DNA from: Acidiferrobacteraceae bacterium
GTDB taxonomy: Bacteria > Pseudomonadota > Gammaproteobacteria > HyVt-429
DNA: 64,000 nucleotides
Assembly: GCA_011052015.1 (NCBI GenBank)
Contig: DRJZ01000051.1
Location: 828-64,827 of the forward strand
Reading direction: 5' to 3'
The position numbers and the translations under genes are program-made. Below, piece after piece: positions 9,276 through 26,718 of the stretch. A model generated the notes under the pieces. It saw only the letters and a list, made by a program, of their open reading frames with translations, did not search any database and was not told where the DNA came from. Within the stretch, counting starts at the first letter, position 1. Every line of letters starts with the position of its first letter.

Positions 9276-9504
9276 TCTCGCACCCTTCAGATAATAAATT
9301 CCTGATTATTTTTGTGCATTTTGAAACAATCTACGCCTACTTAATCAATGCCTGTCTCACAAGATCAAAGCCATATGACAGATAAAATTATTGGCGACGG
9401 AGTAATAAAAACTTCCTCTATCTCAATAAACTCGCTATGGTTTCCCCATAAATTTTCCTGAAGAGCCATAAAACATAACATGAATGATACTACAGACACG
9501 CTAT

Positions 9505-9550
9505 CTATGACATGCCTTTCTCTGTGAGCTCCGTGCCTCCGCGGCAAAGA
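9505..9550. repeat. Single arm of the REP-like family (TCTCTGTGAGCTCCGTGCCTCCGCGG)
   Basis: Shares the CTCTGTG..CTCCGTGCCTC core with the arms at 49767-49924 and shorter versions at 12745-12785 and 28428-28468. Confidence 0.45.
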
Positions 9551-9637
9551 GAAGGCTGTATTCATATTTGCTCACAGCATTGGGTTAAAACCCATTAAAC
9601 CCAGTTTATTAGGGGACAAGAAAAGAGGAGGTGTTGC

Positions 9638-11305
9638 ATGTTAAATATTCAAATTAGTTTTGGTAAGGCAGCGGCGATCACGGTAGGTCTTGCCCTATTG
9701 CTTTACAAGTTATGGCTGGTCGAGGTTCATGATCTCTTCATGATAGGCAGCCCCATGGATGACCTGTTTTTTGTGCGTTCCGCCCAAGAATTGCTGGCCG
9801 GTAACTGGCTGGGCCGCTATACACAATACACGCTGATGGCCGGACCGGTCTACTCCATGTGGATCGCCCTGTGCTACCTGCTCGCAGTGCCCTTACACGT
9901 GGGCCAGCAACTGCTTTATGCCGGCGCTTCCCTGGTGACGGTTCTGGCCCTGTATCCGGTGGTGAGGCATAAGGGTTGGTTGCTGCTTGCCTTCGCCTAT
10001 CTTTTATTTAACCCCTTTACCTATGACTATTCATCGTCTGCCGGCGCCTTCCGGTTGGGGATTTACCCGGCCCTTGCGTTGCTGGTAATCGGGTGCGCCA
10101 TTGGCCTATATACGCGGGCCACGGTCCCCCGGGGCAAACCGTTGCCGTGGGCCGTGGGCCTCGGGGTGGCCTTGGCGGCGTTTTGGTATACACGCGAGGA
10201 GGGTATATGGATCGTGCCGGCGTTAGTGCTTACCGGCTTGTTTGTGGCCATACACGGCCGCACCCGCGGGCAGCGCCGCTGGACCTGTATTTTAGGCTTG
10301 CTCGCGGTGCCTCTGCTGATCTGGACGGGTTCATTCCTTGCGCTTGGGTATATGAATTGGAAGCACTACGGCATCTTCACCGACCTCGAGATCAAGAGCA
10401 CCGAATTCAAGTCAGCCTATAGCGCCTTGATCAGTGTGCGCAGCAATAAACACCAACGGTACTACCTGTTGGAGGCTCCGGTGAGTACCGCTCTAATCAA
10501 GGTGAGCCCTGCGTTCCGGGAGATCAAGCTTTATGTTGGTAAACTTCCTGCCTCGGTTTTTATCTGGTCCCTGCGCGATGCGGTGCAGGCAGCCGGGTAT
10601 TATGACCATGCCGGAAACGATGATCGAAAAAATGGACCGAAGACATTGGATTTTTATAAAAGGTTGGGCGATGAGATTCACCGGGCATGCGATACGGGGC
10701 AATTGACCTGTGATCGGTTGCTGTCATCGTTTGTCCCCGCGTGGACCGAGGAGTATAACCGTGAAATCTTTCCTACCCTTTACGATGTCACCAGAAAGTT
10801 ATTGACATTTGATGGCTTCGATCCGCGCATGCTCGCGAAATGGGTCAGCAGTGATCCCTATGACACATCTTGGTTGTTTACCTATATCACCGGCGAGCGG
10901 TTGCGTACCACCGATCCGGCTGTGCTCAGCAAAGTGCCCGAGGCGCACAGAGAATTTGAGGACATGAAGACTCATCGCCTCCTGCGCATCGGCCGCGACT
11001 ACTACCAGAATCTATTGCCATGGTTGTTTTGGCCCAGCGTAGTCGTGATATTGTTGGTTGCCCTCGTGGAGGCGATCAAAAGAAGAATGTCGCAAGTGAC
11101 AGTGGCTGCATTGATCGTGTTAGCGGCCCTCGTGTCGCATATCACGATTATCTCGCTGGTCGCGATGATGTCGACATTCGCACAGCGCTATTTGTTCGCT
11201 TCCTATCCTTTTGTCATTCTGGTCGTAATCCTGAGTGCGATTATGGTAGTACGCGTTATCACCACTTTGCGCGGCGGTATTGATGACATGGGCAATAGGA
11301 CATGA
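9638..11305 (+). CDS. GT-C fold glycosyltransferase-like polytopic membrane protein (ArnT/PMT-like)
   Basis: N-terminal TM followed by a DD/E motif in the first loop (PMDDLFFVRSAQELLAGNWLG), multiple TM helices, periplasmic domain, two C-terminal TM helices. Confidence 0.4.
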   Translation: MLNIQISFGKAAAITVGLALLLYKLWLVEVHDLFMIGSPMDDLFFVRSAQELLAGNWLGRYTQYTLMAGPVYSMWIALCYLLAVPLHVGQQLLYAGASLVTVLALYPVVRHKGWLLLAFAYLLFNPFTYDYSSSAGAFRLGIYPALALLVIGCAIGLYTRATVPRGKPLPWAVGLGVALAAFWYTREEGIWIVPALVLTGLFVAIHGRTRGQRRWTCILGLLAVPLLIWTGSFLALGYMNWKHYGIFTDLEIKSTEFKSAYSALISVRSNKHQRYYLLEAPVSTALIKVSPAFREIKLYVGKLPASVFIWSLRDAVQAAGYYDHAGNDDRKNGPKTLDFYKRLGDEIHRACDTGQLTCDRLLSSFVPAWTEEYNREIFPTLYDVTRKLLTFDGFDPRMLAKWVSSDPYDTSWLFTYITGERLRTTDPAVLSKVPEAHREFEDMKTHRLLRIGRDYYQNLLPWLFWPSVVVILLVALVEAIKRRMSQVTVAALIVLAALVSHITIISLVAMMSTFAQRYLFASYPFVILVVILSAIMVVRVITTLRGGIDDMGNRT

Positions 11306-11889
11306 TGTCGGTATAGCGGGTTTAACACACAGAGCCGTCCGGCAAGTATTACACGCAACAACGGGTTACGCACCAGTGTCGGGATTGCAATGCAGGGCAA
11401 TGGCGACACAATGTTGCAATTGCGCACGCTCGTCCATACACAAAAGTTTGTTTATGCCTGGACGCGAATGGTGCAACAGGTCTATGGATATCCGGATATG
11501 CGATGGATTTGCTGTAGTGCGGGATATCCTACAGCGTACCGTGCACAGCTACCTGCCCCTACTGAATTATACCGATCGGCAGGCGACCGGTATTCGGTGC
11601 CTCAGCCTGTCCCGTTGCATCGGTAGGGTGATCAATCCTGCAGAGGACCGTTTTAGGGAGAACGATCCGGTCACCATGCGACTCCCGCTCTATGCAGCAG
11701 AGCACGAAAACGAACTATGGACGTGTTTCTTTAAGGGAAGGCTCAGTGGGGTAAAAAGAATCATCAATTAACAAAAGTGCCCATATGTCTATTACTCATG
11801 GAATAAAACTACCCCCCTATAACGTCTACTAAAGTGATTTGAAGAAACCTCACTTTCAGAAACCTCTAGGAGATAAACCCGTGACCAAG

Positions 11890-12351
11890 ATGAAACGCAG
11901 AGCATTTCTCAAGGGCAGCATGGCTGGGAGTGTGCTCGCCATAGCGGTCGGCGCCGGGCTACTGCGCCCTACCCAAGTCATGGCCAGCCAATGGCCGGAT
12001 AAGGCCTTTAAAGCACGCAACCTCGCCGATGCGGTCAACAGTCTATATGGCAGTTCAGACGTTGCGGACAGCAAAGCTATCAAGATTCGTGCGCCTTTAC
12101 AGGCAGAAAATGGCGCCAAGGTGCCAATTCAGATCCTCACCGATCTACCAGCAGAATCTATTGCCGTCTTTGTTAAGGAAAACGCCATGCCCTTGGCAGG
12201 GCGCGCCAATCTGCGCAATGCCAGTGGTTTTTTTAGTACCCGTATCAAGATGGGTAAGAGTTCCGATGTGGTCGCTGTGATCAAATCAAAAGGCAAGCTC
12301 CACTCAACCAAGCTGGCGATTAAAGTCACTGTAGGTGGTTGCGGCGGCTAA
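11890..12351 (+). CDS. soxY: SoxY sulfur-carrier protein, copy 1
   Basis: Tat-like signal MKRRAFLKG; C-terminal GGCGG swinging-arm motif; ORF track starts at 11839 but ATG 11890 (MKRRAFLKG) is the likely start. Confidence 0.85.
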   Translation: MKRRAFLKGSMAGSVLAIAVGAGLLRPTQVMASQWPDKAFKARNLADAVNSLYGSSDVADSKAIKIRAPLQAENGAKVPIQILTDLPAESIAVFVKENAMPLAGRANLRNASGFFSTRIKMGKSSDVVAVIKSKGKLHSTKLAIKVTVGGCGG

Positions 12352-12388
12352 CCCATTTCGATATTGATATTTAAAGAGGAATATAATC

Positions 12389-12706
12389 ATGGCAAGAAAG
12401 ACTAAAGTACGCACCCGCATGCAAGACGGCAAAGTCGAAGTATTGATTCTGATCACCCACCCCATGGAGACCGGCCTTCGCTCTGATAAAAAAACCAAAC
12501 AAAAGATCCCGGCCCACTTCATTCAAACCCTGGATGTCATCCTGAATGGAGAACCGGTGGCCAACGCCGAACTGGGGATAGGCATCTCTACCAACCCATT
12601 ACTGGGTTTCCGTCTCAATTCGGCGAAAACCGGTGATAAACTACAAATTAAATGGAAGGATAACAAGGGGGAGAGTGGAACCATCAACAGCAAAGTCGAT
12701 CTCTGA
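12389..12706 (+). CDS. soxZ: SoxZ, copy 1
   Basis: 105 aa, immediately downstream of soxY; about 50% identical to SoxZ copy 2 (ITHPMETGLRSDKKTKQKIPAHFIQ..., GESGTIN). Confidence 0.85.
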   Translation: MARKTKVRTRMQDGKVEVLILITHPMETGLRSDKKTKQKIPAHFIQTLDVILNGEPVANAELGIGISTNPLLGFRLNSAKTGDKLQIKWKDNKGESGTINSKVDL

Positions 12707-12830: not shown

Positions 12831-13208
12831 TTACTCGTTTTCGGTCAATCGCTCGTAGTGGGATTGAAACAATATCTCCAAGTCATTGATCACCTCCATA
12901 GCCGCCCGTCCTTCCATGACATGCTGGGATACCAGGGCGGTTGATTCGTTCATAAGCTCGGTGGCGTCTATCATTGGATAGGTGATGGTAAGGCGTTGAA
13001 TGGCCTTTACCACGGTTTCTTCCCCCGGCCGTGGAATCGATAGCGGCTCCTTCACCCCAGAGTCTCTATGCACCCCACCCTCTTGAGCGTGCAAAAACTC
13101 GGCAAAATCCAGCAGGCTAGTCCGTTTGGCGTCCGTCAAACCCTGAAAGATTGCTGCCAATCGGTGACTTGGGTTCCCGCTCATCACTCTTCTTGATGTC
13201 GACATCAC
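12831..13208 (-). CDS. Hypothetical small protein, translationally abutting the LysR gene
   Basis: 125-aa ORF starting 3 nt after the LysR stop; no recognisable motif. Confidence 0.35.
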   Translation of the reverse strand: MMSTSRRVMSGNPSHRLAAIFQGLTDAKRTSLLDFAEFLHAQEGGVHRDSGVKEPLSIPRPGEETVVKAIQRLTITYPMIDATELMNESTALVSQHVMEGRAAMEVINDLEILFQSHYERLTENE

Positions 13209-13210
13209 CG

Positions 13211-14134
13211 CTAACTTGATCCCTCATCAACACCGGTCTTTTGTTTTTCACAGTGGTCGTGGGCAAAACCCATGAACTCTTCCATGGCCCGCAGACGAAA
13301 TTTTTGGCGCTGATAGACCAGGGCAAAGGGCCTGACCAACGGAGGATCGAGCTTGACCGTTGCCAATGTCCCCAGACTGATTTCCTTGCCCAAGGTGGCC
13401 TCGGAAATAATCGAAATACCGAGACCCGCTTCCACCGCACTCTTTACCGACTCTGGGCTACCAAACTCCATGGCCACATTTATCTGACTTAGGCTGATAC
13501 CATTTTGCTCGAGGTAATTTACGATAAAATCGCGCGTACCTGAACCCTCTTCCCGGCATATAAATGGATAACCAGTCAAGTCTGCCGCGCCAATCGAGAT
13601 CTGGCCCGCCAGTTCGTGACCATTGGGACAGATCAGCACTAAATTGTCGTGCCAACAGACCTCCACAACCAGATTCTTGTTGCTCACCGGTGATTCGACG
13701 ATCCCTATGTCAACCTCATTATTTTCCACCATGTGGACAATGCCTATAGAATTGGATACCCTGACGCGGATCTTGACCTCTGGAAATTGCTTCTGAAATT
13801 CTCCTAACAGAGCGGGTATCACATATTCTGCGATCGTGGTGCTGGCCCCTATCAGCAACAGACCCATAATATCGCCAGTCAGCCGCCGTACCTCATTTTC
13901 CATTTCGTTGTACAACGCGATAATACGGTCGGCATATTGGTAGACCTGCTCACCGGCATCGGTCAGGTTAATCTTGTTGTGGGTACGATCAAACAGGCGG
14001 GTATTGAAGTATTCTTCCAACTGCCGGATCTGAAATGTAACCGCCGGCTGGGTCATGTGCAAAGAATCCGCCGCCTTAGTAAAACTCAGCAAGCGGGCGA
14101 CGGTATAAAAAACCTGTAGGCGGCGATCAGCCAT
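13211..14134 (-). CDS. LysR-family transcriptional regulator
   Basis: N-terminal wHTH (LQVFYTVARLLSFTKAADSLHMTQPAVTFQIRQLEEYFNTRLFDR) and LysR substrate-binding domain. Confidence 0.85.
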   Translation of the reverse strand: MADRRLQVFYTVARLLSFTKAADSLHMTQPAVTFQIRQLEEYFNTRLFDRTHNKINLTDAGEQVYQYADRIIALYNEMENEVRRLTGDIMGLLLIGASTTIAEYVIPALLGEFQKQFPEVKIRVRVSNSIGIVHMVENNEVDIGIVESPVSNKNLVVEVCWHDNLVLICPNGHELAGQISIGAADLTGYPFICREEGSGTRDFIVNYLEQNGISLSQINVAMEFGSPESVKSAVEAGLGISIISEATLGKEISLGTLATVKLDPPLVRPFALVYQRQKFRLRAMEEFMGFAHDHCEKQKTGVDEGSS

Positions 14135-14334: not shown

Positions 14335-15453
14335 CTAAAACCCGTCCAGCTTCAAGCGTAGATCCGTTGGACTACTGGCATGGTCGAGGGCCACCTCTTC
14401 GCTGATTTCACCCTGGCGGCACAACGTAAAAAGGCTCTCATCGAAGGACAACATGCCCTCTCCCAAACTGCCCTTTTTGATCATATCGTTGATTTCCTTG
14501 CCTTTGAGGGGATCCAGGATGAGTTCACGAATCAAGGCAGACACGGTCATCACCTCCGTGGCCACAACCCGTCCTTCGCCGCTGTGACGGGGCAATAGAC
14601 GCTGGGCCACGACAGCATACAAGTTTTGTGCAATTTTGGAGCGTATGGTGGGCTGTGCCGCTGCTGGAAACACCGAGATCATACGAGTGATTGTCTCTGC
14701 CGCTGCCGGTGCGTGCAGGGTGGTGAAAACCAGGTGGCCCGTTTCGGCTGCGGTGAGCGCAATCTCCATGGTTTCATAATCGCGCATCTCACCCAGCAAT
14801 ATGACATCCGGGTCCTCGCGCAAGGTGGCGCGCATGGCGCCGGCAAAATTATTGGCGTCCACTCCAATTTCACGTTGCGAGATAATGGAGCGTCGTTCTG
14901 TAAACAAAAATTCAACGGGATCTTCGATGGTCAGTATGTGCTTGGCGTATTTGTCATTAATCTCATTAATCAACGACGCCAGAGAAGTAGATTTACCCGA
15001 CCCCGTGGCGCCAGTGAAAATGACCAAACCCCGCTCCAGATCCACAAGACGGTTTACAATATCGGGTAACTTCAGCTCATCGGGTTTTGGAACCTCGGTG
15101 TTGATGACCCGCAAAGCCATAGCAATAGAACCGCGTTGGTAATACACATTAACCCGGACCCGGCCAATGCCCTTCAAACCAATAGACAGGTCCACCTGGT
15201 AGTCTTCCTGAAACTGATCCCAGTGACTAGGCGCCATAATGGTCTGGGCCAACTCTTCCATGAAGGTCAAACTCAACATGGGATACTCATTAACCGGCCG
15301 CAATACTCCATCGACCCGGAGAATGGGAGGCGCCTTGGTCCGCAGATGAATATCCGACGCCTTCTCACGGTTGGCGTGATCCAGAATCGCACTGAGGAAT
15401 CGCAGCGGGTTGCCTAATTGGGCGGCGGCCTGCGGGTTACTTGCTTCAGCCAT
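14335..15453 (-). CDS. pilU: PilT/PilU-family type IV pilus retraction ATPase (PilU-like)
   Basis: Walker A GATGSGKST, ILTIEDPVEF, Asp box, LGEMRD, His box TGHLVFTTLHA; C-terminal DLRLKLDGF resembles PilU. Confidence 0.8.
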   Translation of the reverse strand: MAEASNPQAAAQLGNPLRFLSAILDHANREKASDIHLRTKAPPILRVDGVLRPVNEYPMLSLTFMEELAQTIMAPSHWDQFQEDYQVDLSIGLKGIGRVRVNVYYQRGSIAMALRVINTEVPKPDELKLPDIVNRLVDLERGLVIFTGATGSGKSTSLASLINEINDKYAKHILTIEDPVEFLFTERRSIISQREIGVDANNFAGAMRATLREDPDVILLGEMRDYETMEIALTAAETGHLVFTTLHAPAAAETITRMISVFPAAAQPTIRSKIAQNLYAVVAQRLLPRHSGEGRVVATEVMTVSALIRELILDPLKGKEINDMIKKGSLGEGMLSFDESLFTLCRQGEISEEVALDHASSPTDLRLKLDGF

Positions 15454-15740: not shown

Positions 15741-15764
15741 AAAAGGGGCGCATGCGCCCCTTTG
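15741..15764. terminator. Bidirectional rho-independent terminator (GGGGCGCATGCGCCCC palindrome flanked by A/T runs)
   Basis: Perfect 16-bp palindrome 15745-15760 with AAAA upstream and TTT downstream, in the convergent gap below the 15788-16345 gene. Confidence 0.6.
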
Positions 15765-15787: not shown

Positions 15788-16330
15788 TTACGGACAGGCC
15801 GTCGTCTCGCTCGGCACCTTACCCACCAGCAACAAGAAGTTCTCGAACGGGCCCATGTTCTTCATGGCCTCCCACATTGGACCCTCGAAACCCAAACGCC
15901 CGAACATCATGGCCTTCATGGGGCCGTAATCACCGTTACCCATTTGAACCCAGCGCTGGGTCTTGGCATACATTACATAGTCAACACCGGTGTCAAGTTC
16001 CTTGTGTTGTACTGCTCCGCCGTAGGTGCACAGGGCTTTGCCGTCTTTCTGGGAAATGCTGACTTCCACCCGTGGGCTTTTTTCGCAATCGGAACGATAA
16101 AAATGGATAATCTTGTAACCCCGTCCCTTGTCATTACCTGCCCAACCGGACTTGGCCAACTCGTCGGTTAATACCGGGTCACCATTCCAGGCCTCACAGG
16201 CCGCAGTGGCCCATTCTGCCGACATCATCAGGGGACCCGCCTGGGCGGCGGGGACCCCCACCAACAGCAACCCAAGTCCCAGACCGACAGGCCACTGCCG
16301 GGTGGCACGCAACATTAAATTAAATCGCAT
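15788..16330 (-). CDS. Periplasmic SCP2-like (sterol-carrier/lipid-binding fold) protein
   Basis: Signal peptide MRFNLMLRATRQWPVGLGLGLLLVGVPAAQA; C-terminal SCP2 signature (YGPMKAMMFGRLGFEGPMWEAMKNMGPF). Confidence 0.5.
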   Translation of the reverse strand: MRFNLMLRATRQWPVGLGLGLLLVGVPAAQAGPLMMSAEWATAACEAWNGDPVLTDELAKSGWAGNDKGRGYKIIHFYRSDCEKSPRVEVSISQKDGKALCTYGGAVQHKELDTGVDYVMYAKTQRWVQMGNGDYGPMKAMMFGRLGFEGPMWEAMKNMGPFENFLLLVGKVPSETTACP

Positions 16331-16421
16331 TATGAAATCCTCCATCTTGATTTAAGCCCCGCACGCGTTGCCCAGGACTGTTTATTGTATGAGTATATTC
16401 TTCAACACTTAAATAGCCGGA

Positions 16422-16451
16422 GAAAAAAAGGGCCATGGTTTCCCATGGCCC
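16422..16451 (-). terminator. Rho-independent terminator downstream of the FadL-family gene
   Basis: GGGCCATGG-TTTC-CCATGGCCC perfect 9-bp stem followed by a T-run on the minus strand. Confidence 0.55.
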
Positions 16452-16485
16452 TGAATTTTAAGCTAGCTGTTAAGCAGTGCCCACC

Positions 16486-17778
16486 CTAAAAATTAAGGCC
16501 CACTGAAAAAGCATACTGCTTCATCTTGATCTCAATGGTCTCAGCCGGGTTCAACATACTGGGTCCGGAAACCGAGTTGCTGGGAGCATACATAACGGCC
16601 ACATTGAGCTGCTTACCATGACTCAAGTCTTTGCCGAAACCAAAGGTAAAGTGGTTTTCCACCACCCCAGGGGCCAGGATATTGAGGGTCACTTCAGACG
16701 GACTGATAGGCTGACTGCCGGTAGCAAAACCCGCACGCCAGGTCCAACCACCATTGGTCTTCCTCTGGTAACCGATCTTGAAAGCGGTCATATCATCCCA
16801 CCCAAAACCGGCACTGGCGCTGCCGCCAAGACAATTGGCCATCACACCCGCCATGCAGCCGGAGGTCAATACGCCACCGGGGTTACCCACTGCGTCTACA
16901 TCAGAGTACCAGATCTGCTGAATGTCAAAGGTTACCGCAGATTTGCTATCGGGTTTGAAAGCCAGACCGATAGTGGCGGTAGCGGGAATATCGAATTCAC
17001 CACCCTTAGGGAACAGACCCGCATACTTGTCCATCTTATTGCTAATCTTGGTCTGATAGGACGCGCCAAAACTAAGCTGCGAGTTCACCTTAGCCAGGAT
17101 ACCGATCTTGCCACCAAAACCCCAAGTGCTGTCTACACCGTTGTTGGATAGCTTGGTAGGCGCTACCGAAAACCCACCGAAGGCCGCCAGACCATCCGCC
17201 TTAAACCGGGAGTGGTTGATGATGCCGGTAATACCGATCGACACCGTGTCACTCACCTTACGGGCATAGGTGGTATTGATAAACAATTGCTTGTAATCAA
17301 TGCCGGCATTGGGGTCGCCTGCCCCAGCACCACCGAAGGTGCCAGCACCAAATGTGGTATCGGCATCGGTGTATTCTGAGTTCATACCACCATTACCGAA
17401 CACGGTAACACCAATAGAGCTATTTTTGTCCAGCATCTTGTTATAGGCAAAGTTCGGGATCAAAAAGACCTCGTTATCACTCTGCACCGGTCCGCCGACA
17501 AAGGGTGGAAAGCTGCCATTGGTGCCGGTAATGGTGTATTCACGAATGGGGTGAAACGACGTAATTCCAACAACGGTACTATTCCCCACCATAACCATAC
17601 CCGCAGGGTTGATGGCGCCGGTCATGGCATCCTGGGGCAAGGCCACACCAGCACCGCCCATGCTGCTCTGGATGGCTCCATAGCCGTGCGAAAAATAGCC
17701 CAGTGTCGCGTTGCTGACGGGTGATGTAAAACCCAGTGCGGCAGCCACAGCGAAAGCGAGTGTTGTTTTCTTGTTCAT
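16486..17778 (-). CDS. FadL/TodX/OmpP1-family outer-membrane channel for hydrophobic compounds
   Basis: Signal peptide; N-terminal GYFSHGYGAIQSSMGGAGVALPQDAMTGAINPAGM hatch motif; beta-barrel pattern with C-terminal Phe. Confidence 0.65.
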   Translation of the reverse strand: MNKKTTLAFAVAAALGFTSPVSNATLGYFSHGYGAIQSSMGGAGVALPQDAMTGAINPAGMVMVGNSTVVGITSFHPIREYTITGTNGSFPPFVGGPVQSDNEVFLIPNFAYNKMLDKNSSIGVTVFGNGGMNSEYTDADTTFGAGTFGGAGAGDPNAGIDYKQLFINTTYARKVSDTVSIGITGIINHSRFKADGLAAFGGFSVAPTKLSNNGVDSTWGFGGKIGILAKVNSQLSFGASYQTKISNKMDKYAGLFPKGGEFDIPATATIGLAFKPDSKSAVTFDIQQIWYSDVDAVGNPGGVLTSGCMAGVMANCLGGSASAGFGWDDMTAFKIGYQRKTNGGWTWRAGFATGSQPISPSEVTLNILAPGVVENHFTFGFGKDLSHGKQLNVAVMYAPSNSVSGPSMLNPAETIEIKMKQYAFSVGLNF

Positions 17779-18171
17779 TGCAAGACTCCTCCTCGGTAGA
17801 AACGGTCATAAGGGTGTCGCCACCCATTGGTAAGGGTCAGTCAAAAAACGATGGCCCAAGCTAAATACCTAAAATTTGCAACCGAATAACATTAAAACCA
17901 CCTCCTGCCCAATCTATAGGCTGATCGGATCAGCAGGGTCGAAAGAAATAATGGACCCATAATATAGGCGTGTCAATATATAATTGTATACTAACATAAG
18001 GATTTTTTGTTCTGGATTGTCGATGTCCCCAGGCTGGATTGGCTGCCTGAATCACTGCCAAGATCACTTCGCTTATGGCCACCCCAGACCATCCCCTGTT
18101 ATCACCCAAAAATGTAGATCAGGATAAGGGAAAAAGACAGTTACTTTAAAGAAAACGAAAGTTAGCTAAGC

Positions 18172-18206
18172 ACAAAAAAGGGCGCTGTTTCCACAGCGCC
18201 CTTTTT
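18172..18206. terminator. Bidirectional rho-independent terminator (GGGCGCTG-TTTCCA-CAGCGCCC) downstream of the DsrE-like gene
   Basis: 8-bp perfect stem flanked by A-run and T-run. Confidence 0.55.
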
Positions 18207-18238
18207 CATCCCTGGCAAACCCAGGCCTTCGATTTACA

Positions 18239-18721
18239 TCATATATAGAGGCTAATATCCGCTTCCCCGGCAAAGCCGAGAAACATGGAGGCACCGGCAA
18301 ACTCCACCCCATCAATAAACTCGCTGGGACCAAAATCAAACAGATCCACAGTCATCTGACAGCCGATCAACTTGACATCAGCCTCGACACACAGGCTGCG
18401 TAGTTCTTCCACGCTGGCTATACCCTTGGACTTCATCCGGGCTTTCATCATCACCGTCATCATGCTTTGCATACCGGGCAAGGCTTGTAACAACACCGGC
18501 ATGGGCACCGTCACCGGCCCCATCTTCATGGGCATCCCAGGATTGCCAAGGGAACTGATCTTGAGATTGAGATTTTTGCGCAACAGCTGGAGACCATAGA
18601 AAGTAAAAAAGATCTGCACCTCGAATCCCAGAGCGGCGGCCGTGGACGCCAGGATGAAGGGCGGGTAGGCCCAATCCAGTGTGCCCTTGGTCGCGATAAT
18701 TGCCATTTTCTTTTCTGCCAT
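18239..18721 (-). CDS. DsrE/DsrF-like family sulfur-relay protein (DsrE2/3-type)
   Basis: GGAGGTG RBS 5 nt before ATG at 18721 (MAEKKMAIIATKGTLDWAYPPFILASTAAALG...); conserved Cys in KLIGCQMT; about 160 aa. Confidence 0.55.
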   Translation of the reverse strand: MAEKKMAIIATKGTLDWAYPPFILASTAAALGFEVQIFFTFYGLQLLRKNLNLKISSLGNPGMPMKMGPVTVPMPVLLQALPGMQSMMTVMMKARMKSKGIASVEELRSLCVEADVKLIGCQMTVDLFDFGPSEFIDGVEFAGASMFLGFAGEADISLYI

Positions 18722-19126
18722 AACTTCACCTCCAATCAATAAAGTGTATGTTGTTACTCACCCGCCAAGCTGTATTTTCTACCCACCATGGTTATGCTCC
18801 TCCAAACTGTGCCAGCGGCTACCGATTTACATGGGTATAACGGGGTCTCAACCTGCGACCAGAGTCATCTCGACTGACACCCTGCGGCCAGTCTAGTACA
18901 TATATTAGCAAATCAGCAAATACTTTTTTAATAATATTATGTTAGTTTCCCTGGATACGGCCTAAGTTCAGTATTCCTGGATTTTTCGCTACAGTAAGTC
19001 TGAGGGGTGTAAAATTGACAGCGTTCAAACCCAAAACCCCAATCAGGGCCTGGATAAGGGAACGGCTTTACCACACAAGGGTCGAATGATAAGTACACAC
19101 AACTGTTTTAAGGCGTACAGCAATCC

Positions 19127-20593
19127 ATGATGACAAGCGCACGATACCTGAGCTTTTTGGGCACACTTTTTATAGCCACCATCGCCCCGGCAGGGGCCCA
19201 AGTCAGCGACCTGCCTGACTTGGGTGAGCAATCCGCTGCCATTATATCCATCGCCGAGGAACGGGAGTTGGGTGAAAATTTTATGCGTTCGGCCCACCAG
19301 CAGTTACGCTTCATAGATGACCCCGAACTCAATGGGTACATCCAGGCACTAGGCCAAAAGTTCGCTAAACTCAGTGGCTCCCAGCAAGAATTTCATTTTT
19401 TTATCATCAACGACAATAGCCTCAATGCCTTTGCAGTACCCGGAGGCTTTATTGGGGTGCATACCGGGTTGATCCTGGCGACACAGACCGAGGCCGAACT
19501 GGCCTCGGTGCTTGCCCATGAAACTGCCCACATCAGTCAACGCCATCTACCGCGAATGATCGCCCGGGCCAAGGAAAAAAGCTCCCTGCCCACTATTGCC
19601 GCGCTCATTGCCGCAGCCATGCTCGGTGGCCAGGCCGCCGAGGCGGCCATCGTCATGACTGCTGCAAAATCGGCCAAAAACCAACTCGATTACACCCGGG
19701 AGTTTGAACGTGAGGCGGACCGTATTGGTATGCAGATTCTGGCCAAGGCCCAGTATGAACCCCGCGCCATGTCCAGTTTTTTCCAACGCCTGCAGACCTC
19801 ATCACGAACCTATGATACGGGCGCCCCGGAGTTTTTACGTACCCACCCCGTTACTTCCAATCGAATTGCCGAGGCCCGTGCACGAGCCGATCGCTACCCC
19901 AAGACGTTTACTCAGGATAGTTCGGCATTCCATCACTTCCGCGCCCGAGTGCGGGTGCTCTCAAGTGACGACCCGGCACAGGCAGTCAACTATTTTGCCG
20001 GTGGTTTTAGGACTGGAAAAATCGCCGACGAAAACGCCCACCGCTATGGCTATAGTCTGGCCCTGCTCAAAGCTAACCGCCTCAGTGAAGCCAGCAAACA
20101 AGCAGCGCTTTTACTGTCACGCAATCCAGGCAAGGTCGATTACCAAATGCTTAAGGCCGAAATCGAAATGGCCATGGGACGCCTGAATGCATCCATCGGT
20201 CTGCTGGCCCGGGCTCACCAGTCCCATCCAGACAACCCCGTCATCAGCCAGCGTTATGCAGCAGCCCTGTTGCGAGGTGGACAAGCGAACAAGGCCAAAC
20301 AATTGCTGCGCAAGGTCTTACGTAAACATCCAGGTAATCCGATGCTCCAGAAAATGCTTGCCGCTGCCGCCGTAGACAGTGGCGACCCTTTAACCTCCCA
20401 TCGCGCCCTTGCGGAATTTTATTATCTAAACGGCAATGCCCGCGCCGCTATCGAGCAACTCATGATTGCAAATCGTTATACCAAAGGAAATTTTTACGAT
20501 CAGTCCGGTGTGGATGCGCGCATGCAAGAAATAAAAGGCGAAATAGCACGCTATAAAGACGACAAAGATGACAAGAAACACAAGAGCCACTGA
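19127..20593 (+). CDS. bepA: BepA/YfgC-type periplasmic M48 metalloprotease with C-terminal TPR domain
   Basis: Signal peptide; HEXXH in VLAHETAHISQRH; E..ADR motif; C-terminal TPR-like repeats; 488 aa. Confidence 0.75.
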   Translation: MMTSARYLSFLGTLFIATIAPAGAQVSDLPDLGEQSAAIISIAEERELGENFMRSAHQQLRFIDDPELNGYIQALGQKFAKLSGSQQEFHFFIINDNSLNAFAVPGGFIGVHTGLILATQTEAELASVLAHETAHISQRHLPRMIARAKEKSSLPTIAALIAAAMLGGQAAEAAIVMTAAKSAKNQLDYTREFEREADRIGMQILAKAQYEPRAMSSFFQRLQTSSRTYDTGAPEFLRTHPVTSNRIAEARARADRYPKTFTQDSSAFHHFRARVRVLSSDDPAQAVNYFAGGFRTGKIADENAHRYGYSLALLKANRLSEASKQAALLLSRNPGKVDYQMLKAEIEMAMGRLNASIGLLARAHQSHPDNPVISQRYAAALLRGGQANKAKQLLRKVLRKHPGNPMLQKMLAAAAVDSGDPLTSHRALAEFYYLNGNARAAIEQLMIANRYTKGNFYDQSGVDARMQEIKGEIARYKDDKDDKKHKSH

Positions 20594-20938: not shown

Positions 20939-21355
20939 ATGCGGAAATCCAGCACTTTCATTACCACCCTCGGTGCAGTTGCACTGATGATGGGTGGAAT
21001 GGCAATTGCACCGCAGGCAGTCGCGGTCGGCGAAATGCCGAGCAAGAAAGTCTGTAAATCAAAGCCCAAAGACCCCGTGGTCGCGGGTGGGTGCATCGCC
21101 ACTGACCGTAAAAAAGGCAATTGCATGGCTTGCCACAGCTTTGCTGGTCTAGAGAAGACCCGACTCCAATCCGGCAACGTTGGACCACCTCTCGTCGCCA
21201 TGAAACAACGCTTCAAAGACAAGAAAAAACTGCGTGCCCAAATCTGGGATGCCACCAAGGCTAACCCGCAGTCCATGATGCCGCCATTTGGTAGACATAA
21301 AATCTTGTCTGAAAAAGACATTGATCTGATTACCGCATGGGTGCTTAGCCTGTAG
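20939..21355 (+). CDS. soxX: SoxX monoheme cytochrome c
   Basis: Signal peptide, single CMACH heme motif, MMPPFG; first gene of a soxXYZA(B) array. Confidence 0.8.
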   Translation: MRKSSTFITTLGAVALMMGGMAIAPQAVAVGEMPSKKVCKSKPKDPVVAGGCIATDRKKGNCMACHSFAGLEKTRLQSGNVGPPLVAMKQRFKDKKKLRAQIWDATKANPQSMMPPFGRHKILSEKDIDLITAWVLSL

Positions 21356-21412
21356 TGGCAAAACAGATTTTAGTGGTAGCACAATTACACAGCTATGTAG
21401 GAGAAGGTAACA

Positions 21413-21880
21413 ATGAAACGTAGAACGTTTATGAAGGGCAGTCTTGCGGGAAGCGTACTGGCGGTTGCCGCCGGTAGTGGCCTGCTTAAGCCCACCGATG
21501 TCCTGGCAGCAGGGTGGCCGAAAGGGGCGTTTGACGCTCAAAGCGAAGCCGATATGCTGAGCAGCCTGTATGGCTCGAGCAGCGCCAGCGCTAGCGGAAA
21601 GATCCGTATTAAGGCCCCGATCCAGGCGGAAAATGGGCGCGTGGTGCCGGTTAAGGTACAGGCCAGTCTGGCTAATGTAGAATCCATTGCCGTCGCCGTC
21701 GCCAAGAACCCACGCCCCCTCGCCACTAGCGTCAATCTGAGCGGTGGTGCAACCGGCTATTACAGCACCCGCATTAAAATGGGCAAGACCTCTAAGGTCA
21801 CCGCCTATGTTAAAGCTGGCGGTAAACTGCATACGGCTTCCAAAACGGTGAAAGTGACCGTTGGTGGCTGCGGCGGTTAA
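21413..21880 (+). CDS. soxY: SoxY, copy 2
   Basis: Tat signal MKRRTFMKG; C-terminal VTVGGCGG. Confidence 0.9.
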   Translation: MKRRTFMKGSLAGSVLAVAAGSGLLKPTDVLAAGWPKGAFDAQSEADMLSSLYGSSSASASGKIRIKAPIQAENGRVVPVKVQASLANVESIAVAVAKNPRPLATSVNLSGGATGYYSTRIKMGKTSKVTAYVKAGGKLHTASKTVKVTVGGCGG

Positions 21881-21915
21881 GCCGGGCTTACGCTTAACAT
21901 ATCGAGGACTACGAA

Positions 21916-22227
21916 ATGGCTAGATTAACAAAGATCAAAACCAGGAAGCGTGGCGATACCACAGAAATCCTGGCACTGGTAAACCATCCTATGGAAACCG
22001 GTAGGCGCAAGAACAAAAAGACCAAGCAAAAGGTTCCGGCGCACTACATCCAGAAAATGACCTTCGAACTCAACGGCAAGGTAGTTGCGGAAGCGAGCTT
22101 GGGACCTGCGGTCTCCAAGAACCCTCTGACTGCCGTCACCGTCAAAGGCGCCAAAACTGGCGACAAAGTAAAGGTAAGCTGGACCGATAACAAGGGTGAA
22201 AGCGGCGGCGCCACAGGGGCCGTATAA
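21916..22227 (+). CDS. soxZ: SoxZ, copy 2
   Basis: 103 aa, LVNHPMETGRRKNKKTKQKVPAHYIQ; follows soxY. Confidence 0.9.
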   Translation: MARLTKIKTRKRGDTTEILALVNHPMETGRRKNKKTKQKVPAHYIQKMTFELNGKVVAEASLGPAVSKNPLTAVTVKGAKTGDKVKVSWTDNKGESGGATGAV

Positions 22228-22296
22228 CTTCAAACTTATTATGGGGATCGCCGGGTCGCTACGATTCGGCGGCATTCCAGCCTTAGGAGGAAAATA

Positions 22297-23115
22297 ATGA
22301 AGAAGCTTATTATTGCAGTAACGGCTCTTGGATTGCTGGCGTTTGGTTCGCTATCGGTCCAAGCTAGCCCTCAAAGTGACCTGAAAGCATTTCAGGGATA
22401 CTTTAAGAAAAACTTCCCAAAAATCAAATTCGACGATTTCTCAAATGGTCTTTATGCCCTTCCTGAGGCCGCCGACCGGCGCGCCGAATGGGAGGCCATC
22501 GAAGAATTCCCACCTTATGAGCTTGACCTCGCCAAGGGTAAGAAGTTTTGGGAGAAAAACAAGCTGGGTACCTGCTTTAAGAATGGCGGTGCCGGTATTG
22601 CCCAAAACTACCCCTACTGGGACAAGAAAAAGAAGGAAGTCCGCACCGCAGAGTTGGACATCAATGCCTGCTTGAAACGGCAAGGCAAAAAGCCTATCAA
22701 AAAAGGCAAATTGGCTACCGTAACCGCCTATTTCTATAACATGGCGCGGGGCAAACGGATCAAGATTGACGTGTCAGCTCCTGGCGCTATTGCCGAATAT
22801 GAGAAGGGCAAGCATTTCTTCTGGGCCAAGCGCGGCCAGTTGAACTTCTCATGCGCCAACTGTCACATCAGCGGGGCAGGCAAGCGGGTTGGCGGTAACA
22901 TCATGAGTACGGCTCTGGGTCACGGTACCGGTTTTCCGGCCTACCGCTCCAAGTGGGGCGGTCTGGGTACCATCCACCGCCGTTATAAAGGCTGCAACAA
23001 GCAGGTGCGGACTGCGCCATTAAAGCAGAACAACAAGACGTACCGTGCACTGCAACTGTATGAAACATATATGAATACAGGCCTGCCTTTGACGGCACCC
23101 AGTAACCGGTTCTAG
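22297..23115 (+). CDS. soxA: SoxA, monoheme type
   Basis: Signal peptide; single CANCH heme motif; Cys ligand in RRYKGCNKQVR; no second CXXCH. Confidence 0.85.
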   Translation: MKKLIIAVTALGLLAFGSLSVQASPQSDLKAFQGYFKKNFPKIKFDDFSNGLYALPEAADRRAEWEAIEEFPPYELDLAKGKKFWEKNKLGTCFKNGGAGIAQNYPYWDKKKKEVRTAELDINACLKRQGKKPIKKGKLATVTAYFYNMARGKRIKIDVSAPGAIAEYEKGKHFFWAKRGQLNFSCANCHISGAGKRVGGNIMSTALGHGTGFPAYRSKWGGLGTIHRRYKGCNKQVRTAPLKQNNKTYRALQLYETYMNTGLPLTAPSNRF

Positions 23116-23142
23116 CACCTACCGTAATAAAATGGGGTACCA

Positions 23143-23172
23143 AAGCCCGGCCCCAGTGGCCGGGCTTTTTTT
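23143..23172 (+). terminator. Rho-independent terminator after soxA
   Basis: AGCCCGGCC-CCAGT-GGCCGGGCT perfect stem followed by TTTTTTTT. Confidence 0.65.
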
Positions 23173-23319
23173 TAATAAGTTGCATGGGGATTCAGCGCAT
23201 AATTAAAACGTTTGGAATGGCCCTGAACCCTGTAGCGTTCTAGTTCTAGTGCGGGGTAACCCACTAAACATACGCTACTAAATAATTACAACAGACCGTT
23301 TGATGATGGAGCTAAGAAG

Positions 23320-25068
23320 ATGAGCCTTTCCCGACGTGAATTCCTCCAACTGCTGACTGCAGCCAGTGCCGCAGGATTCGCCCTGCCAGGCTGCGACAGC
23401 AGCAACACCACGACCGCGCATACCACAGCTTCATCTACCAACCCGGCCGACCCCTATGAGCTAAAGCCGTTTGGTAATGTTTCCTTTATGCACTTTACCG
23501 ACTGCCACGCGCAACTGCTACCCGTGCATTTTAGAGAACCCAACATTAACCTGGGTTTCGGTAGCGCCTATGGCAAGGCCCCGCATCTGGTAGGCGACAA
23601 GTTCCTGAAGCATTTCGGCATCAAACCCGGCACACGTGAGGCCCATGCCTTTACCTACCTGAACTATGTCGAAGCCGCGCAAAAATACGGCAAGGTCGGT
23701 GGCTTTGCCCATCTTGCCACCCTCGTCAAACAGATTAAGGCGCAGCGTCCAAACGCTCTACTACTCGACGGTGGTGACACTTGGCAGGGTTCGGCCACCG
23801 CACTGTGGACCAAGGGTCAAGATATGATAGATGCCTGTAAGCTTCTGGGCGTGGACGTTATGACCGGCCACTGGGAGTTCACCTATGGAGCCAAACGGGT
23901 ACAGGACATCATCAAGAATGATCTTGATGGCCATATAGAATTTCTAGCTCAAAATGTGGTGGAAACCACGTTTGAAGACCGCATTTTTAATCCCTATACC
24001 ATTAAAGAACAAAATGGCATCAAAATCGCGGTCATCGGCCAGGCCTTCCCTTACACACCGATTGCCAACCCACGTTACATGATCCCGGATTGGAGCTTCG
24101 GTATTCGTGATGAGGCCCTGCAAGAACTGGTTGACGAGGTGCGTGGCAAAGGGGCCCAAGTGGTAGTTATCCTGTCTCACAACGGCATGGACGTGGACCT
24201 CAAGATGGCTAGCCGGGTAACCGGTGTCGATGCCATCATGGGTGGTCACACCCACGACGGGGTTCCGGCGCCCAGTGTCATCAGCAACTCCAATGGCAAA
24301 ACCCTGGTTATCAACTCGGGCTCAAACGGAAAGTTCTTGTCGGTGCTGGACCTCGAAGTCAAAGGGGGCAAAGTTAGCGATTATCGCTTCAAGATGCTGC
24401 CGATATTCTCGAATCTCATCAAGGCCGATGCCCAGATGACTGCCCATATCAATAAGGTCCGTGCACCTTACAAGGCCAAACTTGAAGAAAAGCTGGCCAT
24501 CACCGACAGCCTGCTCTACCGGCGGGGCAACTTTAATGGCACCTTTGATCAACTGATTCTGAATGCCCAAATAGAGGTCCAGGGCGCTGATATGGCGTTT
24601 TCACCGGGATTTCGTTGGGGCGTGAGTCTACTACCGGGAGAGGCCATCACCCGTGAGGCCTTGATGTCTCAGACCGCAATCACCTACCCCAAGGCCACCC
24701 TCAACACAATAACGGGCGAAAACCTGAAGACCATCATGGAAGGCATCGCCGACAACCTGTTCCACGAAGATCCCTACTATCAGATGGGTGGAGATATGGT
24801 GCGAACCGCCGGATTAAAATACACCATTGACCCCACCGCAAAGATGGACCACCGAATCAGCGATATGGAGATAAACGGTTCAAAAGTAGAGGCCAGCAAG
24901 GAATATCTAGTCGCTGGCTGGGCTGCGGTTAACCCGGTACCGAAGGGTCGACCCATCTGGGACATCGTCGAGGAATACCTGAAATCCATTAAAGTCGTCA
25001 AAATAGACAAACCCAATGTGCCAAAATTAAAAGGGTCAAGCGGCAACCCAGGTATTGCAAGTATATAA
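23320..25068 (+). CDS. soxB: SoxB thiosulfohydrolase (5'-nucleotidase/metallophosphatase family)
   Basis: Tat signal SRREFLQLL; metallophosphatase motifs (FMHFTDCHAQL, GGDTWQGS, GHWEF, GGHTHD); 582 aa. Confidence 0.9.
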   Translation: MSLSRREFLQLLTAASAAGFALPGCDSSNTTTAHTTASSTNPADPYELKPFGNVSFMHFTDCHAQLLPVHFREPNINLGFGSAYGKAPHLVGDKFLKHFGIKPGTREAHAFTYLNYVEAAQKYGKVGGFAHLATLVKQIKAQRPNALLLDGGDTWQGSATALWTKGQDMIDACKLLGVDVMTGHWEFTYGAKRVQDIIKNDLDGHIEFLAQNVVETTFEDRIFNPYTIKEQNGIKIAVIGQAFPYTPIANPRYMIPDWSFGIRDEALQELVDEVRGKGAQVVVILSHNGMDVDLKMASRVTGVDAIMGGHTHDGVPAPSVISNSNGKTLVINSGSNGKFLSVLDLEVKGGKVSDYRFKMLPIFSNLIKADAQMTAHINKVRAPYKAKLEEKLAITDSLLYRRGNFNGTFDQLILNAQIEVQGADMAFSPGFRWGVSLLPGEAITREALMSQTAITYPKATLNTITGENLKTIMEGIADNLFHEDPYYQMGGDMVRTAGLKYTIDPTAKMDHRISDMEINGSKVEASKEYLVAGWAAVNPVPKGRPIWDIVEEYLKSIKVVKIDKPNVPKLKGSSGNPGIASI

Positions 25069-25482: not shown

Positions 25483-26718
25483 TTATACTGCTTCGAGCTT
25501 GCGCATGGCCTTGGGTAGCATGCGCATATCCACCAACGAACTGACCAATGCAGCGTAAAAGTTGGCCTCGTCTTCGTACACCATTCGGTAATATTGAATT
25601 TTCATGGTTAAGGCACTGCCAAACACGATAGAGAAGAACACCAATATTGATCCAAGGGCCAACGTGGATATGCCAGTAATCGCCTGGCCGACGGTACAGC
25701 CCATAGCCAACACCCCACCCACACCCATCAGTACCGCACCCATGGCGTGCCTAAAGAAATCTCCAAATGAGGCAAACCACTCAATACTGAATCGTTTCGA
25801 GATAATGGCGTATAAAAACGACCCCACGATAACACCGAACAGGGCCATTACACCAAAGTTTATGAAGCTGACTTTAGTAGGGCTCGACAAATAGCGCCAG
25901 GTATCACCCGTGGGACTGACAAATGTATAGGACTGGGCCATCACCCGGCTTGGGATCTCATCGGCAAATTCAGCATAGGCTTTCCATTCCTCACCCATAG
26001 GGCCCGCAGTAATGTACCAACCCGCAATAATCACCAAACCAATGACAAATCCAGCGAGTACATTATCAAACCGGCTGCGAAAATCTGTGGATACAAACAC
26101 AAATATCGCCAGGGACAGGGCAATTAAGCCACCAAACACAAAATGCAACATAGAGGTATCCTCCATGCCGATCGCGCCACCGATAATAGCGCCAAGCTCC
26201 TGGCTCCCAATGCCCATTGCCGCCAAATCCACGGTCGTGGGCTGAATCCAGGGCATGAAATAATTGGTAAAAATACCTTCACCCGGCGCCAAGGGATCCT
26301 CTCCCCACAGCATCATATAGGCAGAAGCAGCAATAATAACGAGCACAACAATGGATTTGATATTGCCGCCACCGATACGTACCAGGGTACGCTGAGCGCA
26401 ACCACTCCCTAAGGTCATACCGATGCCGAACAAGGTGCCCCCCAGGACATACCGCAACCAGGCAAAATTGGCCGTACGATAAGGCGGGAAGGTCGCTGTA
26501 CCCAGTTCAATTTTGCCCAAATACTCAAGCAACAGCACACCAGCCAAGGCCACGGTCATAGCAAACACCCACGCCCGTAAACGTCCAGTGTCGCCCATAT
26601 TGACCCAGTCGGAGACCGCACCCATGGTACAAAAATTTGTTTTGAAAACTATCGCACCCATAAATACAGCGAGCAGGAATACGAGTAATAAAACTTGAAT
26701 ATGGATAGTAAATTCCAC
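25483..26718 (-). CDS. YeeE/YedE-family (TsuA-like) putative thiosulfate/sulfur-compound transporter
   Basis: Two internally repeated halves, each with the conserved Cys motif (FCTMGAVSD and GCTVGQAITGIS); highly hydrophobic, 411 aa. Confidence 0.7.
   Translation of the reverse strand: MEFTIHIQVLLLVFLLAVFMGAIVFKTNFCTMGAVSDWVNMGDTGRLRAWVFAMTVALAGVLLLEYLGKIELGTATFPPYRTANFAWLRYVLGGTLFGIGMTLGSGCAQRTLVRIGGGNIKSIVVLVIIAASAYMMLWGEDPLAPGEGIFTNYFMPWIQPTTVDLAAMGIGSQELGAIIGGAIGMEDTSMLHFVFGGLIALSLAIFVFVSTDFRSRFDNVLAGFVIGLVIIAGWYITAGPMGEEWKAYAEFADEIPSRVMAQSYTFVSPTGDTWRYLSSPTKVSFINFGVMALFGVIVGSFLYAIISKRFSIEWFASFGDFFRHAMGAVLMGVGGVLAMGCTVGQAITGISTLALGSILVFFSIVFGSALTMKIQYYRMVYEDEANFYAALVSSLVDMRMLPKAMRKLEAV

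Follow-up and report, generated by a model that had tools for sequence, protein, structure and literature searches.

The stretch of DNA discussed here, 64,000 nucleotides (nt) from an Acidiferrobacteraceae metagenome-assembled genome (MAG) and hereafter called the window, carries at positions 15788–18739 three consecutive open reading frames (ORFs) on the minus strand, which encode a secreted protein of the SCP2 fold, an outer-membrane channel of the FadL family and the sulfur carrier DsrE2. They are the subject of an original prediction, made by a model from the letters of the stretch and a list of its ORFs, which read them as an SCP2-fold secreted protein, a FadL/TodX-type channel and a DsrE-like protein of a sulfur-oxidising bacterium, each gene ending in a terminator hairpin of its own. 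ORFs, profiles and folds agree with these assignments, the start codons being slightly shifted; the three hairpins are confirmed; its suggestion that the three proteins handle a hydrophobic sulfur species (S8 or organic polysulfides) has partial support, from comparative genomics; and the premise of a sulfur oxidiser is well founded, soxXYZA with soxB, a second soxYZ pair, a YeeE-type gene and rhodanese fusions all lying within 27 kb.

Gene products and transcription signals of the locus

Transcription of this strand meets dsrE2 first (18239..18721, minus strand). The gene encodes a cytoplasmic sulfur carrier of 160 amino acids (aa), which matches over its full length the NCBIfam equivalog SulfCarrDsrE2 (NF047629; 284.4 bits against a cut-off of 210) and is also recovered by Pfam DrsE_2 (1.5e-51), and it likely starts at the ATG at 18721 and not at the TTG at 18739. 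The active-site cysteine lies in the motif IGCQMT, and an alignment of 59 DsrE2 sequences shows it conserved in 95% or more of them. A close known system is the rhd–tusA–dsrE2 arrangement of Allochromatium vinosum, reportedly a cytoplasmic sulfur relay (Stockdreher et al. 2014), together with the sulfur transferases associated with sHdr, with which the window shares the DsrE2 equivalog and to which relatives elsewhere come closer still, having tusA ahead of dsrE2 and sometimes a rhodanese. Unlike that system, the window has a dsrE2 with no preceding tusA; tblastn found no tusA in the whole window (best E 0.019, a spurious match), and no remains of such a gene came to light either, be it ahead of dsrE2 or in any other part of the stretch. 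A role of DsrE2 as a membrane anchor was likewise considered and set aside, the protein having neither a signal peptide nor a clear transmembrane segment (highest 19-residue Kyte–Doolittle mean 1.56), which agrees with doubts voiced in a recent survey (PMC11094781). Its central segment, approximately residues 58–98, is rich in Met and Pro (GNPGMPMKMGPVTVPMPVLLQALPGMQSMMTVMMKARMK), Met making up 8.8% of the protein overall.

The channel gene follows (16486..17778, minus strand) and encodes 430 aa with a signal peptide, of which residues 44–402 match Pfam Toluene_X (PF03349) at 63.2 bits against a cut-off of 29.7. The AlphaFold2 (AF2) model (predicted local distance difference test score, pLDDT, 90.7; predicted template-modelling score, pTM, 0.89) has 14 main strands, ahead of the first of which residues 25–64 form a helical or coiled N-terminal plug. 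In Foldseek its best match is Escherichia coli FadL (E 1.4e-45, template-modelling score 0.70), followed by Pseudomonas aeruginosa FadL, TodX, TbuX and CymD. The relation in sequence is remote, a phmmer search against solved structures returning TodX/TbuX weakly (E 3.5e-11, C-terminal half only) and E. coli FadL not at all. With E. coli FadL and with TodX, TbuX and CymD the channel nevertheless shares the 14-strand barrel, the plug, an NPA motif and a third strand broken at a glycine-rich motif. The hatch motif, N57-P58-A59, is invariant in 59 channel homologues, and within a clade of 109 channels 99 have NPA and the other 10 NPG. The glycine-rich motif NGGM (residues 129–132) is likewise invariant among the 59 close homologues and present in 97 of the 109 clade members, and DSSP places the break in strand 3 of the model at 129/134, at this very motif; in FadL, van den Berg's structures reportedly have the lateral exit at this place.

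What separates the clade of the window channel from TodX is a long extracellular loop 5 (approximately residues 290–329), an insert absent from TodX in the alignment, which carries the pair Cys308/Cys316 in 53 of the 59 close homologues. Among FadL copies with a link to tusA or dsrE2 the pair shows enrichment (odds ratio 4.8, p 0.0013) but is not universal, and the idea of recognising sulfur-linked FadL by it was therefore tried and dropped. Two or three FadL paralogues stand side by side near dsrE2 in several of the loci surveyed below, which are designated by L-numbers (L163, L166, L167, L083, L084, L094, L125 and L145), and some of these adjacent copies lie on opposite strands; such adjoining paralogues suggest channel diversification.

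The SCP2-like gene (15788..16330, minus strand) encodes 180 aa and scores 30.5 bits against Pfam SCP2, whose cut-off is 21.3. The ATG at 16330 is a more likely start than position 16345, with GGAGG 8 nt upstream and in agreement with the database gene call, and the N-terminus reads as a Sec-type signal peptide ending in AQA. The AF2 model, made with an alignment of 50 homologues, has a mean pLDDT of 88.3, and its top 19 Foldseek matches in the Protein Data Bank (PDB) are all SCP2 proteins (2cx7, E 5e-7). Four cysteines (45, 82, 101 and 179) and seven methionines are invariant among the 50 homologues, the alignment shows conserved Met, Phe and Leu, and Met accounts for 6.7% of the protein. Its family has few members, which are highly conserved (55–80% identical), and it is narrow: at E≤0.001 it comprises 1390 clusters at 90% identity, or 212 representatives at 50% identity, many of them fragments, among 1.84 billion proteins. 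The alpha/beta SCP2 fold is shared with the sterol-carrier proteins and their relatives (Thermus 2cx7, human SCP-2, UbiJ/UbiT and the C-terminal domain of the alkylsulfatase SdsA1). Unlike these, the window protein is secreted, has the invariant cysteines and methionines just named and belongs to a separate family; to our knowledge, the known SCP2 proteins are all either cytosolic or peroxisomal, or domains of larger enzymes.

Each gene is followed on the minus strand by a hairpin with a U-run that resembles an intrinsic terminator: at 18172..18209 after dsrE2 (−29.3 kcal/mol, z −8.45), at 16429..16452 after fadL (10 pairs, 7 of them GC; −21.0 kcal/mol, z −4.70) and at 15742..15763 after the SCP2-like gene (9 pairs, 6 of them GC; −15.3 kcal/mol, z −4.56). 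The z-scores are relative to shuffled sequences, none of 200 shuffles having folded as well, and two of the three hairpins, those after fadL and the SCP2-like gene, were also picked up by another scan. The genes are separated by gaps of 460 nt (dsrE2 to fadL) and 155 nt (fadL to the SCP2-like gene). The trio does not form a simple operon, strong terminators standing after both dsrE2 and fadL, and these separate terminators argue against simple co-transcription in the window. A sigma-70-like match, TTGACA-17-CATTAT, lies at 17948..17976 (minus strand; 10 of 12 positions), approximately 170 nt ahead of the start codon of fadL, as a consensus match in a region where such sites are no more numerous than expected from shuffling. 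In the long intergenic regions no riboswitch or known small RNA was found, Rfam giving only sub-threshold matches, on the terminators.

Linkage of the genes in other genomes

Conservation was assessed from each of the three genes. A search for the SCP2-like protein, with each species represented by a single genome, returned 80 loci, in which genes were called by ranking ORFs by homology to other loci, the high-GC betaproteobacterial loci holding competing antisense ORFs. By tblastn, FadL is directly adjacent in 30 of the 80 loci, the colinear order dsrE2, fadL, SCP2 is found in 24, and tusA is present in 21. When neighbours were clustered without bias towards any family, FadL, DsrE2 and TusA emerged as the top three families, FadL being the most frequent. 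The trio-positive loci belong to two proteobacterial classes, coming from Acidiferrobacteraceae and from many Burkholderiales-type Betaproteobacteria (Casimicrobiaceae and other uncultured lineages); they are dispersed over the SCP2 tree, and their identity to the window proteins drops to approximately 38% for FadL, 55% for DsrE2 and 60% for the SCP2-like protein. At least six different flanking contexts occur among them. To the left of the module lie an M48 protease with sox genes, soeABC-like genes (a cytoplasmic molybdoenzyme, an iron–sulfur protein and an NrfD protein, assigned from their sequences only, with no profile), yeeE, a CsoR/CstR-like repressor or a cassette of lbpA and radical SAM genes, and to the right pilT, DUF6866 and several others. 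In two Usitatibacteraceae-type loci (L067 and L070) dsrE2 and fadL stand together with the SCP2-like gene approximately 6 kb away.

The second survey was centred on the channel, a metagenome scan with the FadL alignment giving 80 relatives at 40–50% identity, 63 of them with at least 1.2 kb of flanking sequence. Of these 80 loci, 32 have a DsrE-family gene no more than 2.5 kb away; 22 of the 32 are at least 49% identical to the window DsrE2, and 20 are upstream and colinear. TusA is encoded in 18 of the 80, a YeeE-type or DUF6691 protein in 13, and some sulfur gene is present in 40. Typical orders, with arrowheads giving the strand, are soxXYZA> tusA> dsrE2> fadL> c2> yeeE> and soxAZYX< M48< dsrE2< rhd> fadL> c2>, where c2 is a secreted protein described below, and rearranged loci of the two surveys still keep the genes adjacent (fadL>tusA>dsrE2; fadL>dsrE2<; SCP2>dsrE2>fadL). 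The original prediction had named a clustering of the FadL homologue with aromatic hydrocarbon transporters beside catabolic genes as a finding that would overturn it; no aromatic-catabolism neighbourhood recurs among the clustered loci, and the match to TodX/TbuX is the weak one noted above.

From the side of DsrE2, six close relatives were sampled on long contigs. All six loci show the order sox< M48/TPR< tusA> dsrE2>, and in five of them one or two Toluene_X genes come directly after dsrE2; in the sixth, dsrE2 is followed by dsrE, lbpA, a radical SAM gene, LplA, an FAD protein and a second radical SAM gene. More generally, tusA precedes dsrE2 in L004, L008, L021 and L166–L171; of these, L167, from Kaarinaea lacus (GCA_975901915.1), has the order tusA, dsrE2, fadL, fadL. 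The tightest pair is dsrE2–fadL, mostly with tusA ahead, and it is spread far more widely than the trio. The co-conservation of all three genes that had been foreseen was thus found in part: the trio recurs in order in the 24 SCP2-centred loci and dsrE2–fadL beyond them, but the association rarely extends to the SCP2-like gene when the search starts from the channel. The robust core is (tusA–)dsrE2–fadL followed by a secreted protein, beside sox; the window holds the Acidiferrobacteraceae/betaproteobacterial version of it, without tusA, and the SCP2-like protein is a lineage-limited partner of FadL.

The slot after fadL always holds a secreted protein, which is either SCP2-like, a member of the family that we call c2, or, in L170, a series of SCP2-like, DUF302 and MlaC-like proteins. 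The c2 proteins are approximately 308 aa long and are encoded immediately after fadL in 25 of the 80 metagenome loci, in other Gammaproteobacteria (examples are L114:7599-8525 and L097:4794-5759); further copies lie outside this set of 80, at L163:9417-10331, L169:8577-9512 and L171:8401-9336. No Pfam family matches c2 at E≤0.01, the one indication being a DUF302 flag marked ‘faint’ in precomputed annotation, and the c2 profile finds no solved relative in the PDB; homology between c2 and the SCP2-like protein was considered and rejected (hhalign probability 1.3%). Locus L170, from a gammaproteobacterial MAG, has the order tusA, dsrE2, fadL, SCP2-like, DUF302, MlaC-like, the last three at 8308-10303, and its SCP2-like protein is 58.5% identical to that of the window. 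Three secreted putative ligand binders stand in tandem behind fadL in this locus.

A candidate route for hydrophobic sulfur

The linkage of this FadL clade to dsrE2 is far above chance and goes beyond simple synteny, so that a functional tie between the channel and cytoplasmic sulfur trafficking is likely on the evidence of the sequences. The proteins of known fold that follow fadL, SCP2 and MlaC, are binders of hydrophobic ligands, which fits the need for a periplasmic carrier. Since FadL moves hydrophobic molecules, a secreted binder follows fadL, and the cells meet or make zero-valent sulfur, the reading that we favour is that the FadL-family channel and the SCP2-fold protein form a conduit for hydrophobic zero-valent sulfur that serves cytoplasmic sulfur oxidation, and we give this a probability of roughly 45%. 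Folds, secretion signals, the identity of DsrE2 and the gene linkage are observations, and the evidence for function is that of genomic context; what is carried, which way, and how it is handed on at each point of the following scheme are proposals.

The cargo could be cyclo-octasulfur (S8), long polysulfanes or organic polysulfanes. The channel would let such water-insoluble sulfur across the lipopolysaccharide barrier, by a path that skirts the plug and leaves the barrel through an opening in its wall, in the same manner as FadL and TodX channels carry fatty acids and toluene. The Met-rich SCP2-fold protein might then take the sulfur species into its hydrophobic pocket and ferry it through the periplasm. 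At the inner membrane the sulfur would be turned into a persulfide or imported, possibly by way of the YeeE-type protein encoded nearby, and TusA and DsrE2 would receive it and pass it on for oxidation by sHdr or reverse-Dsr. FadL channels being passive, outward traffic by the same path is conceivable as well, in which zero-valent sulfur produced by a Sox system that lacks SoxCD would be deposited. Import is the more likely direction, and export to extracellular sulfur is possible.

A broader version of this proposal is more doubtful. It holds that many sulfur-oxidising Proteobacteria possess a dedicated trans-envelope pathway for S8, in which this FadL clade would be the long-postulated S8-mobilising protein of the outer membrane, often with an extracellular dithiol loop, acting together with interchangeable periplasmic carriers (SCP2-like, c2, DUF302 and MlaC-like), YeeE and TusA/DsrE2, and in which the role still to be assigned to DsrE2 would be that of taking up the sulfur first in the cytoplasm.

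The passage of S8 over the outer membrane and the delivery of sulfane sulfur to sHdr and reverse-Dsr are long-standing questions of sulfur lithotrophy, and a conserved module of this kind supplies named candidates for the proteins that act at the outer membrane and in the periplasm. A 2024 survey of the sulfur transferases associated with sHdr describes sulfane sulfur import as ‘not yet clear’ and states that the function of DsrE2A ‘remains unclear’ (Tanabe et al., PMC11094781). Neither ‘outer membrane’ nor ‘periplasm’ occurs in its text, and no such partner is described there for the sulfur transferases. The original prediction had known of no description of such a pathway, and this stands for the module itself, our literature search having found no paper that links FadL- or SCP2-type proteins to tusA/dsrE2, but not for the idea of sulfur chains borne by a FadL protein. 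In Chlorobaculum tepidum the FadL homologue CT2230, a member of a predicted sulfide-repressed regulon, has been proposed to carry hydrophobic sulfur chains (bioRxiv 10.1101/172254); this nearest precedent is a one-sentence speculation from a promoter motif, with neither a tusA/dsrE2 linkage nor a periplasmic carrier described. The parts are thus of known types (FadL, SCP2 and DsrE2) in a context that is not described in the literature searched. Compared with the FadL and TodX systems, the genomic partners of the window channel are sulfur-trafficking genes and not fad or aromatic-catabolic operons. Importers of the YeeE/YeeD (TsuA/TsuB) and SoxT type are similar in that a Sulf_transp protein is encoded in the window and beside the module elsewhere, often with TusA-family proteins; unlike the module, they are inner-membrane systems for a hydrophilic anion, and we know of no outer-membrane component for them. 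If the favoured reading is true, the substrate range of FadL and of the SCP2 fold widens from organic lipids to inorganic sulfur.

Several observations weigh against a conduit for zero-valent sulfur. All of the evidence for function is gene neighbourhood. The only characterised substrate of the YeeE family is reportedly thiosulfate (Tanaka et al. 2020), which is hydrophilic. The SCP2-like gene has no FadL link in 50 of the 80 SCP2-centred loci and occurs there in contexts of a housekeeping character, such as trmD–rplS, an EF-G-like gene, genes for CBS-domain and PAP2 proteins, and Calvin-cycle genes; it adjoins fadL in only 2 of the 80 FadL-centred loci. About half of the FadL relatives have no sulfur gene nearby, and one, at approximately 50% identity, sits among TetR, YceI, GST and LigB genes. 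Of the 34 FadL copies with a sulfur link in the metagenome loci, 14 lack the loop-5 cysteine pair. In the window a strong terminator stands behind each of the three genes, and no tusA is present anywhere. Related uncultured Betaproteobacteria account for many of the positive loci, and independent events are therefore fewer than the counts suggest. Finally, in several loci genes of LbpA lipoylation or, in L170, for a MlaC-like lipid binder lie beside the module and point to organic hydrophobic ligands.

The last of these points leads to the alternative that survives best, although we consider it unlikely: the channel and the SCP2-like protein may traffic an organic hydrophobic molecule, either octanoate or lipoate for the lipoylation of LbpA in the sHdr system, or membrane lipids, and the linkage to dsrE2 would then reflect membership in a wider sHdr/LbpA neighbourhood and not sulfur transport. 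Both protein families handle fatty acids and lipids. The LbpA maturation cassette of the sHdr system, which consists of lbpA, two radical SAM genes, a gene for an FAD/geranylgeranyl-reductase-like protein and an LplA-like ligase gene, abuts or interrupts the module in L019, L038, L040, L050, L163 and L168. In the first four of these loci fadL and the SCP2-like gene lie between radical SAM genes and the LplA-like ligase, in L163 the run lbpA, radical SAM, LplA, FAD protein, radical SAM precedes three FadL genes, and in L168 the cassette stands directly behind dsrE2. The MlaC-like lipid binder added in L170 and the constant neighbourhood of a BepA-like envelope protease would suit this explanation as well. 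Most linked loci, however, have no lipoylation genes, their constant neighbours being tusA, dsrE2, sox and yeeE, and a comparison of L166 and L167 with L168 and L163 gives the lbpA cassette the appearance of an insertion between dsrE2 and fadL. Genes of the Calvin–Benson–Bassham cycle (RuBisCO and phosphoribulokinase, read from the sequences) also occur near some copies, so that these organisms, apparently autotrophic, can presumably make octanoate themselves. Were this alternative true, an uptake of lipid or lipoate precursors would be tied to sHdr/LbpA, a result that would still be of interest, if on a smaller scale.

It is less probable again that the genes are not functionally coupled and that their proximity is inherited synteny of a region close to sox, FadL being a general channel for hydrophobic nutrients or the envelope and the SCP2-like protein having an unrelated periplasmic role. 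The separate terminators in the window, the many unrelated contexts of SCP2, the half of the FadL relatives that lack a sulfur context and the derivation of many positive loci from related MAG lineages are all what such synteny would predict. Against this, the order is retained between at least six different left and right flanks, in two classes and at FadL identities of only about 38%; dsrE2–fadL is intact even where the SCP2-like gene is 6 kb off (L067, L070); the rearranged loci still keep the genes adjacent; and, with approximately one to two copies per genome, we estimate the chance of a dsrE2 gene within 3 kb of a random gene at well under 1%.

The weakest alternative, that the substrate is not inorganic zero-valent sulfur but a small organosulfur compound of hydrophobic nature, or else a thiol or persulfide carrier that is hydrophobic and of low molecular weight, can draw on the very same context evidence, on the service of sHdr systems in dimethyl sulfide oxidation in Hyphomicrobium (PMC11094781) and on the CsoR/CstR-like repressor between tusA and dsrE2 in L051, L055 and L065, but it is improbable: small volatile organosulfur compounds are generally understood to cross membranes with no need of channels, and in the clustered loci no genes of organosulfur catabolism were repeatedly found next to the module.

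Surroundings of the three genes

Divergent from dsrE2 lies a gene for a BepA-like M48 metalloprotease with a TPR domain (19127..20593, plus strand; Pfam Peptidase_M48 and TPR), which falls below the NCBIfam cut-off for BepA (382 bits against 570). An M48/TPR protease gene occupies the place between soxX and tusA–dsrE2 in nearly every gammaproteobacterial locus sampled (L166–L171, L084, L087, L100 and others), and the protein may be a specialised paralogue that, for example, assembles the adjacent FadL barrel or processes periplasmic sulfur proteins. It is followed in the window by soxX, soxY, soxZ, soxA and soxB (20939..25068, plus strand), the genes of periplasmic thiosulfate oxidation, assigned from Pfam SoxY, SoxZ, SoxA-TsdA, cytochrome c and 5_nucleotid_C; no soxCD is present among the annotated ORFs of the window. 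Convergent with the sox genes is the gene for a YeeE/YedE-type inner-membrane ‘sulphur transport’ protein (25483..26718, minus strand; Pfam Sulf_transp, 193.8 bits). Genes of this family come after the FadL module in other Gammaproteobacteria and ahead of tusA–dsrE2 in some Betaproteobacteria.

On the other side of the trio, pilT (14335-15453, minus strand) separates the SCP2-like gene from a gene for a LysR regulator (13211-14134, minus strand), which matches the NCBIfam equivalog ‘selenium metabolism-associated LysR’ at 272.9 bits against a cut-off of 250, and a small ORF (12831-13208, minus strand) lies between the LysR gene and the first soxYZ pair (11839-12706), the latter part of a plus-strand block. 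The block of pilT, LysR and small ORF also follows the SCP2-like gene in the Acidiferrobacteraceae loci L004, L008, L012, L021 and L063. Directly upstream of the first soxYZ pair are two plus-strand ORFs, 9638-11305 and 11280-11771, of 555 and 163 aa; these and the minus-strand ORF 6879-9275 (798 aa) have no Pfam match at E≤1e-4. Further out stands a gene for a SoxA/TsdA-like multi-haem cytochrome c (1545-2690, plus strand), just past which an unusual fusion of 949 aa is encoded (2690-5539, plus strand), combining a SulP sulfate-permease, a STAS domain, a cyclic-nucleotide-binding domain and a rhodanese, followed by a separate protein with a cyclic-nucleotide-binding domain and a rhodanese (5610-6704, plus strand).

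Two further neighbours recur in Betaproteobacteria. A CsoR/CstR repressor (Pfam Trns_repr_metal) is encoded divergently between tusA and dsrE2 in L051, L055 and L065, and could possibly be a persulfide-responsive regulator of the module. A DUF6866 protein of approximately 366 aa is encoded close to the module, at most a few genes away, in L013, L026, L027, L029, L036, L039, L047, L048, L057, L073 and others, often accompanied by ferredoxin-reductase-like and TauD-like proteins (both so judged by sequence alone); this recurrence may be lineage synteny. In the window itself the sulfur genes form an island of approximately 27 kb around the trio, beyond which housekeeping genes follow.

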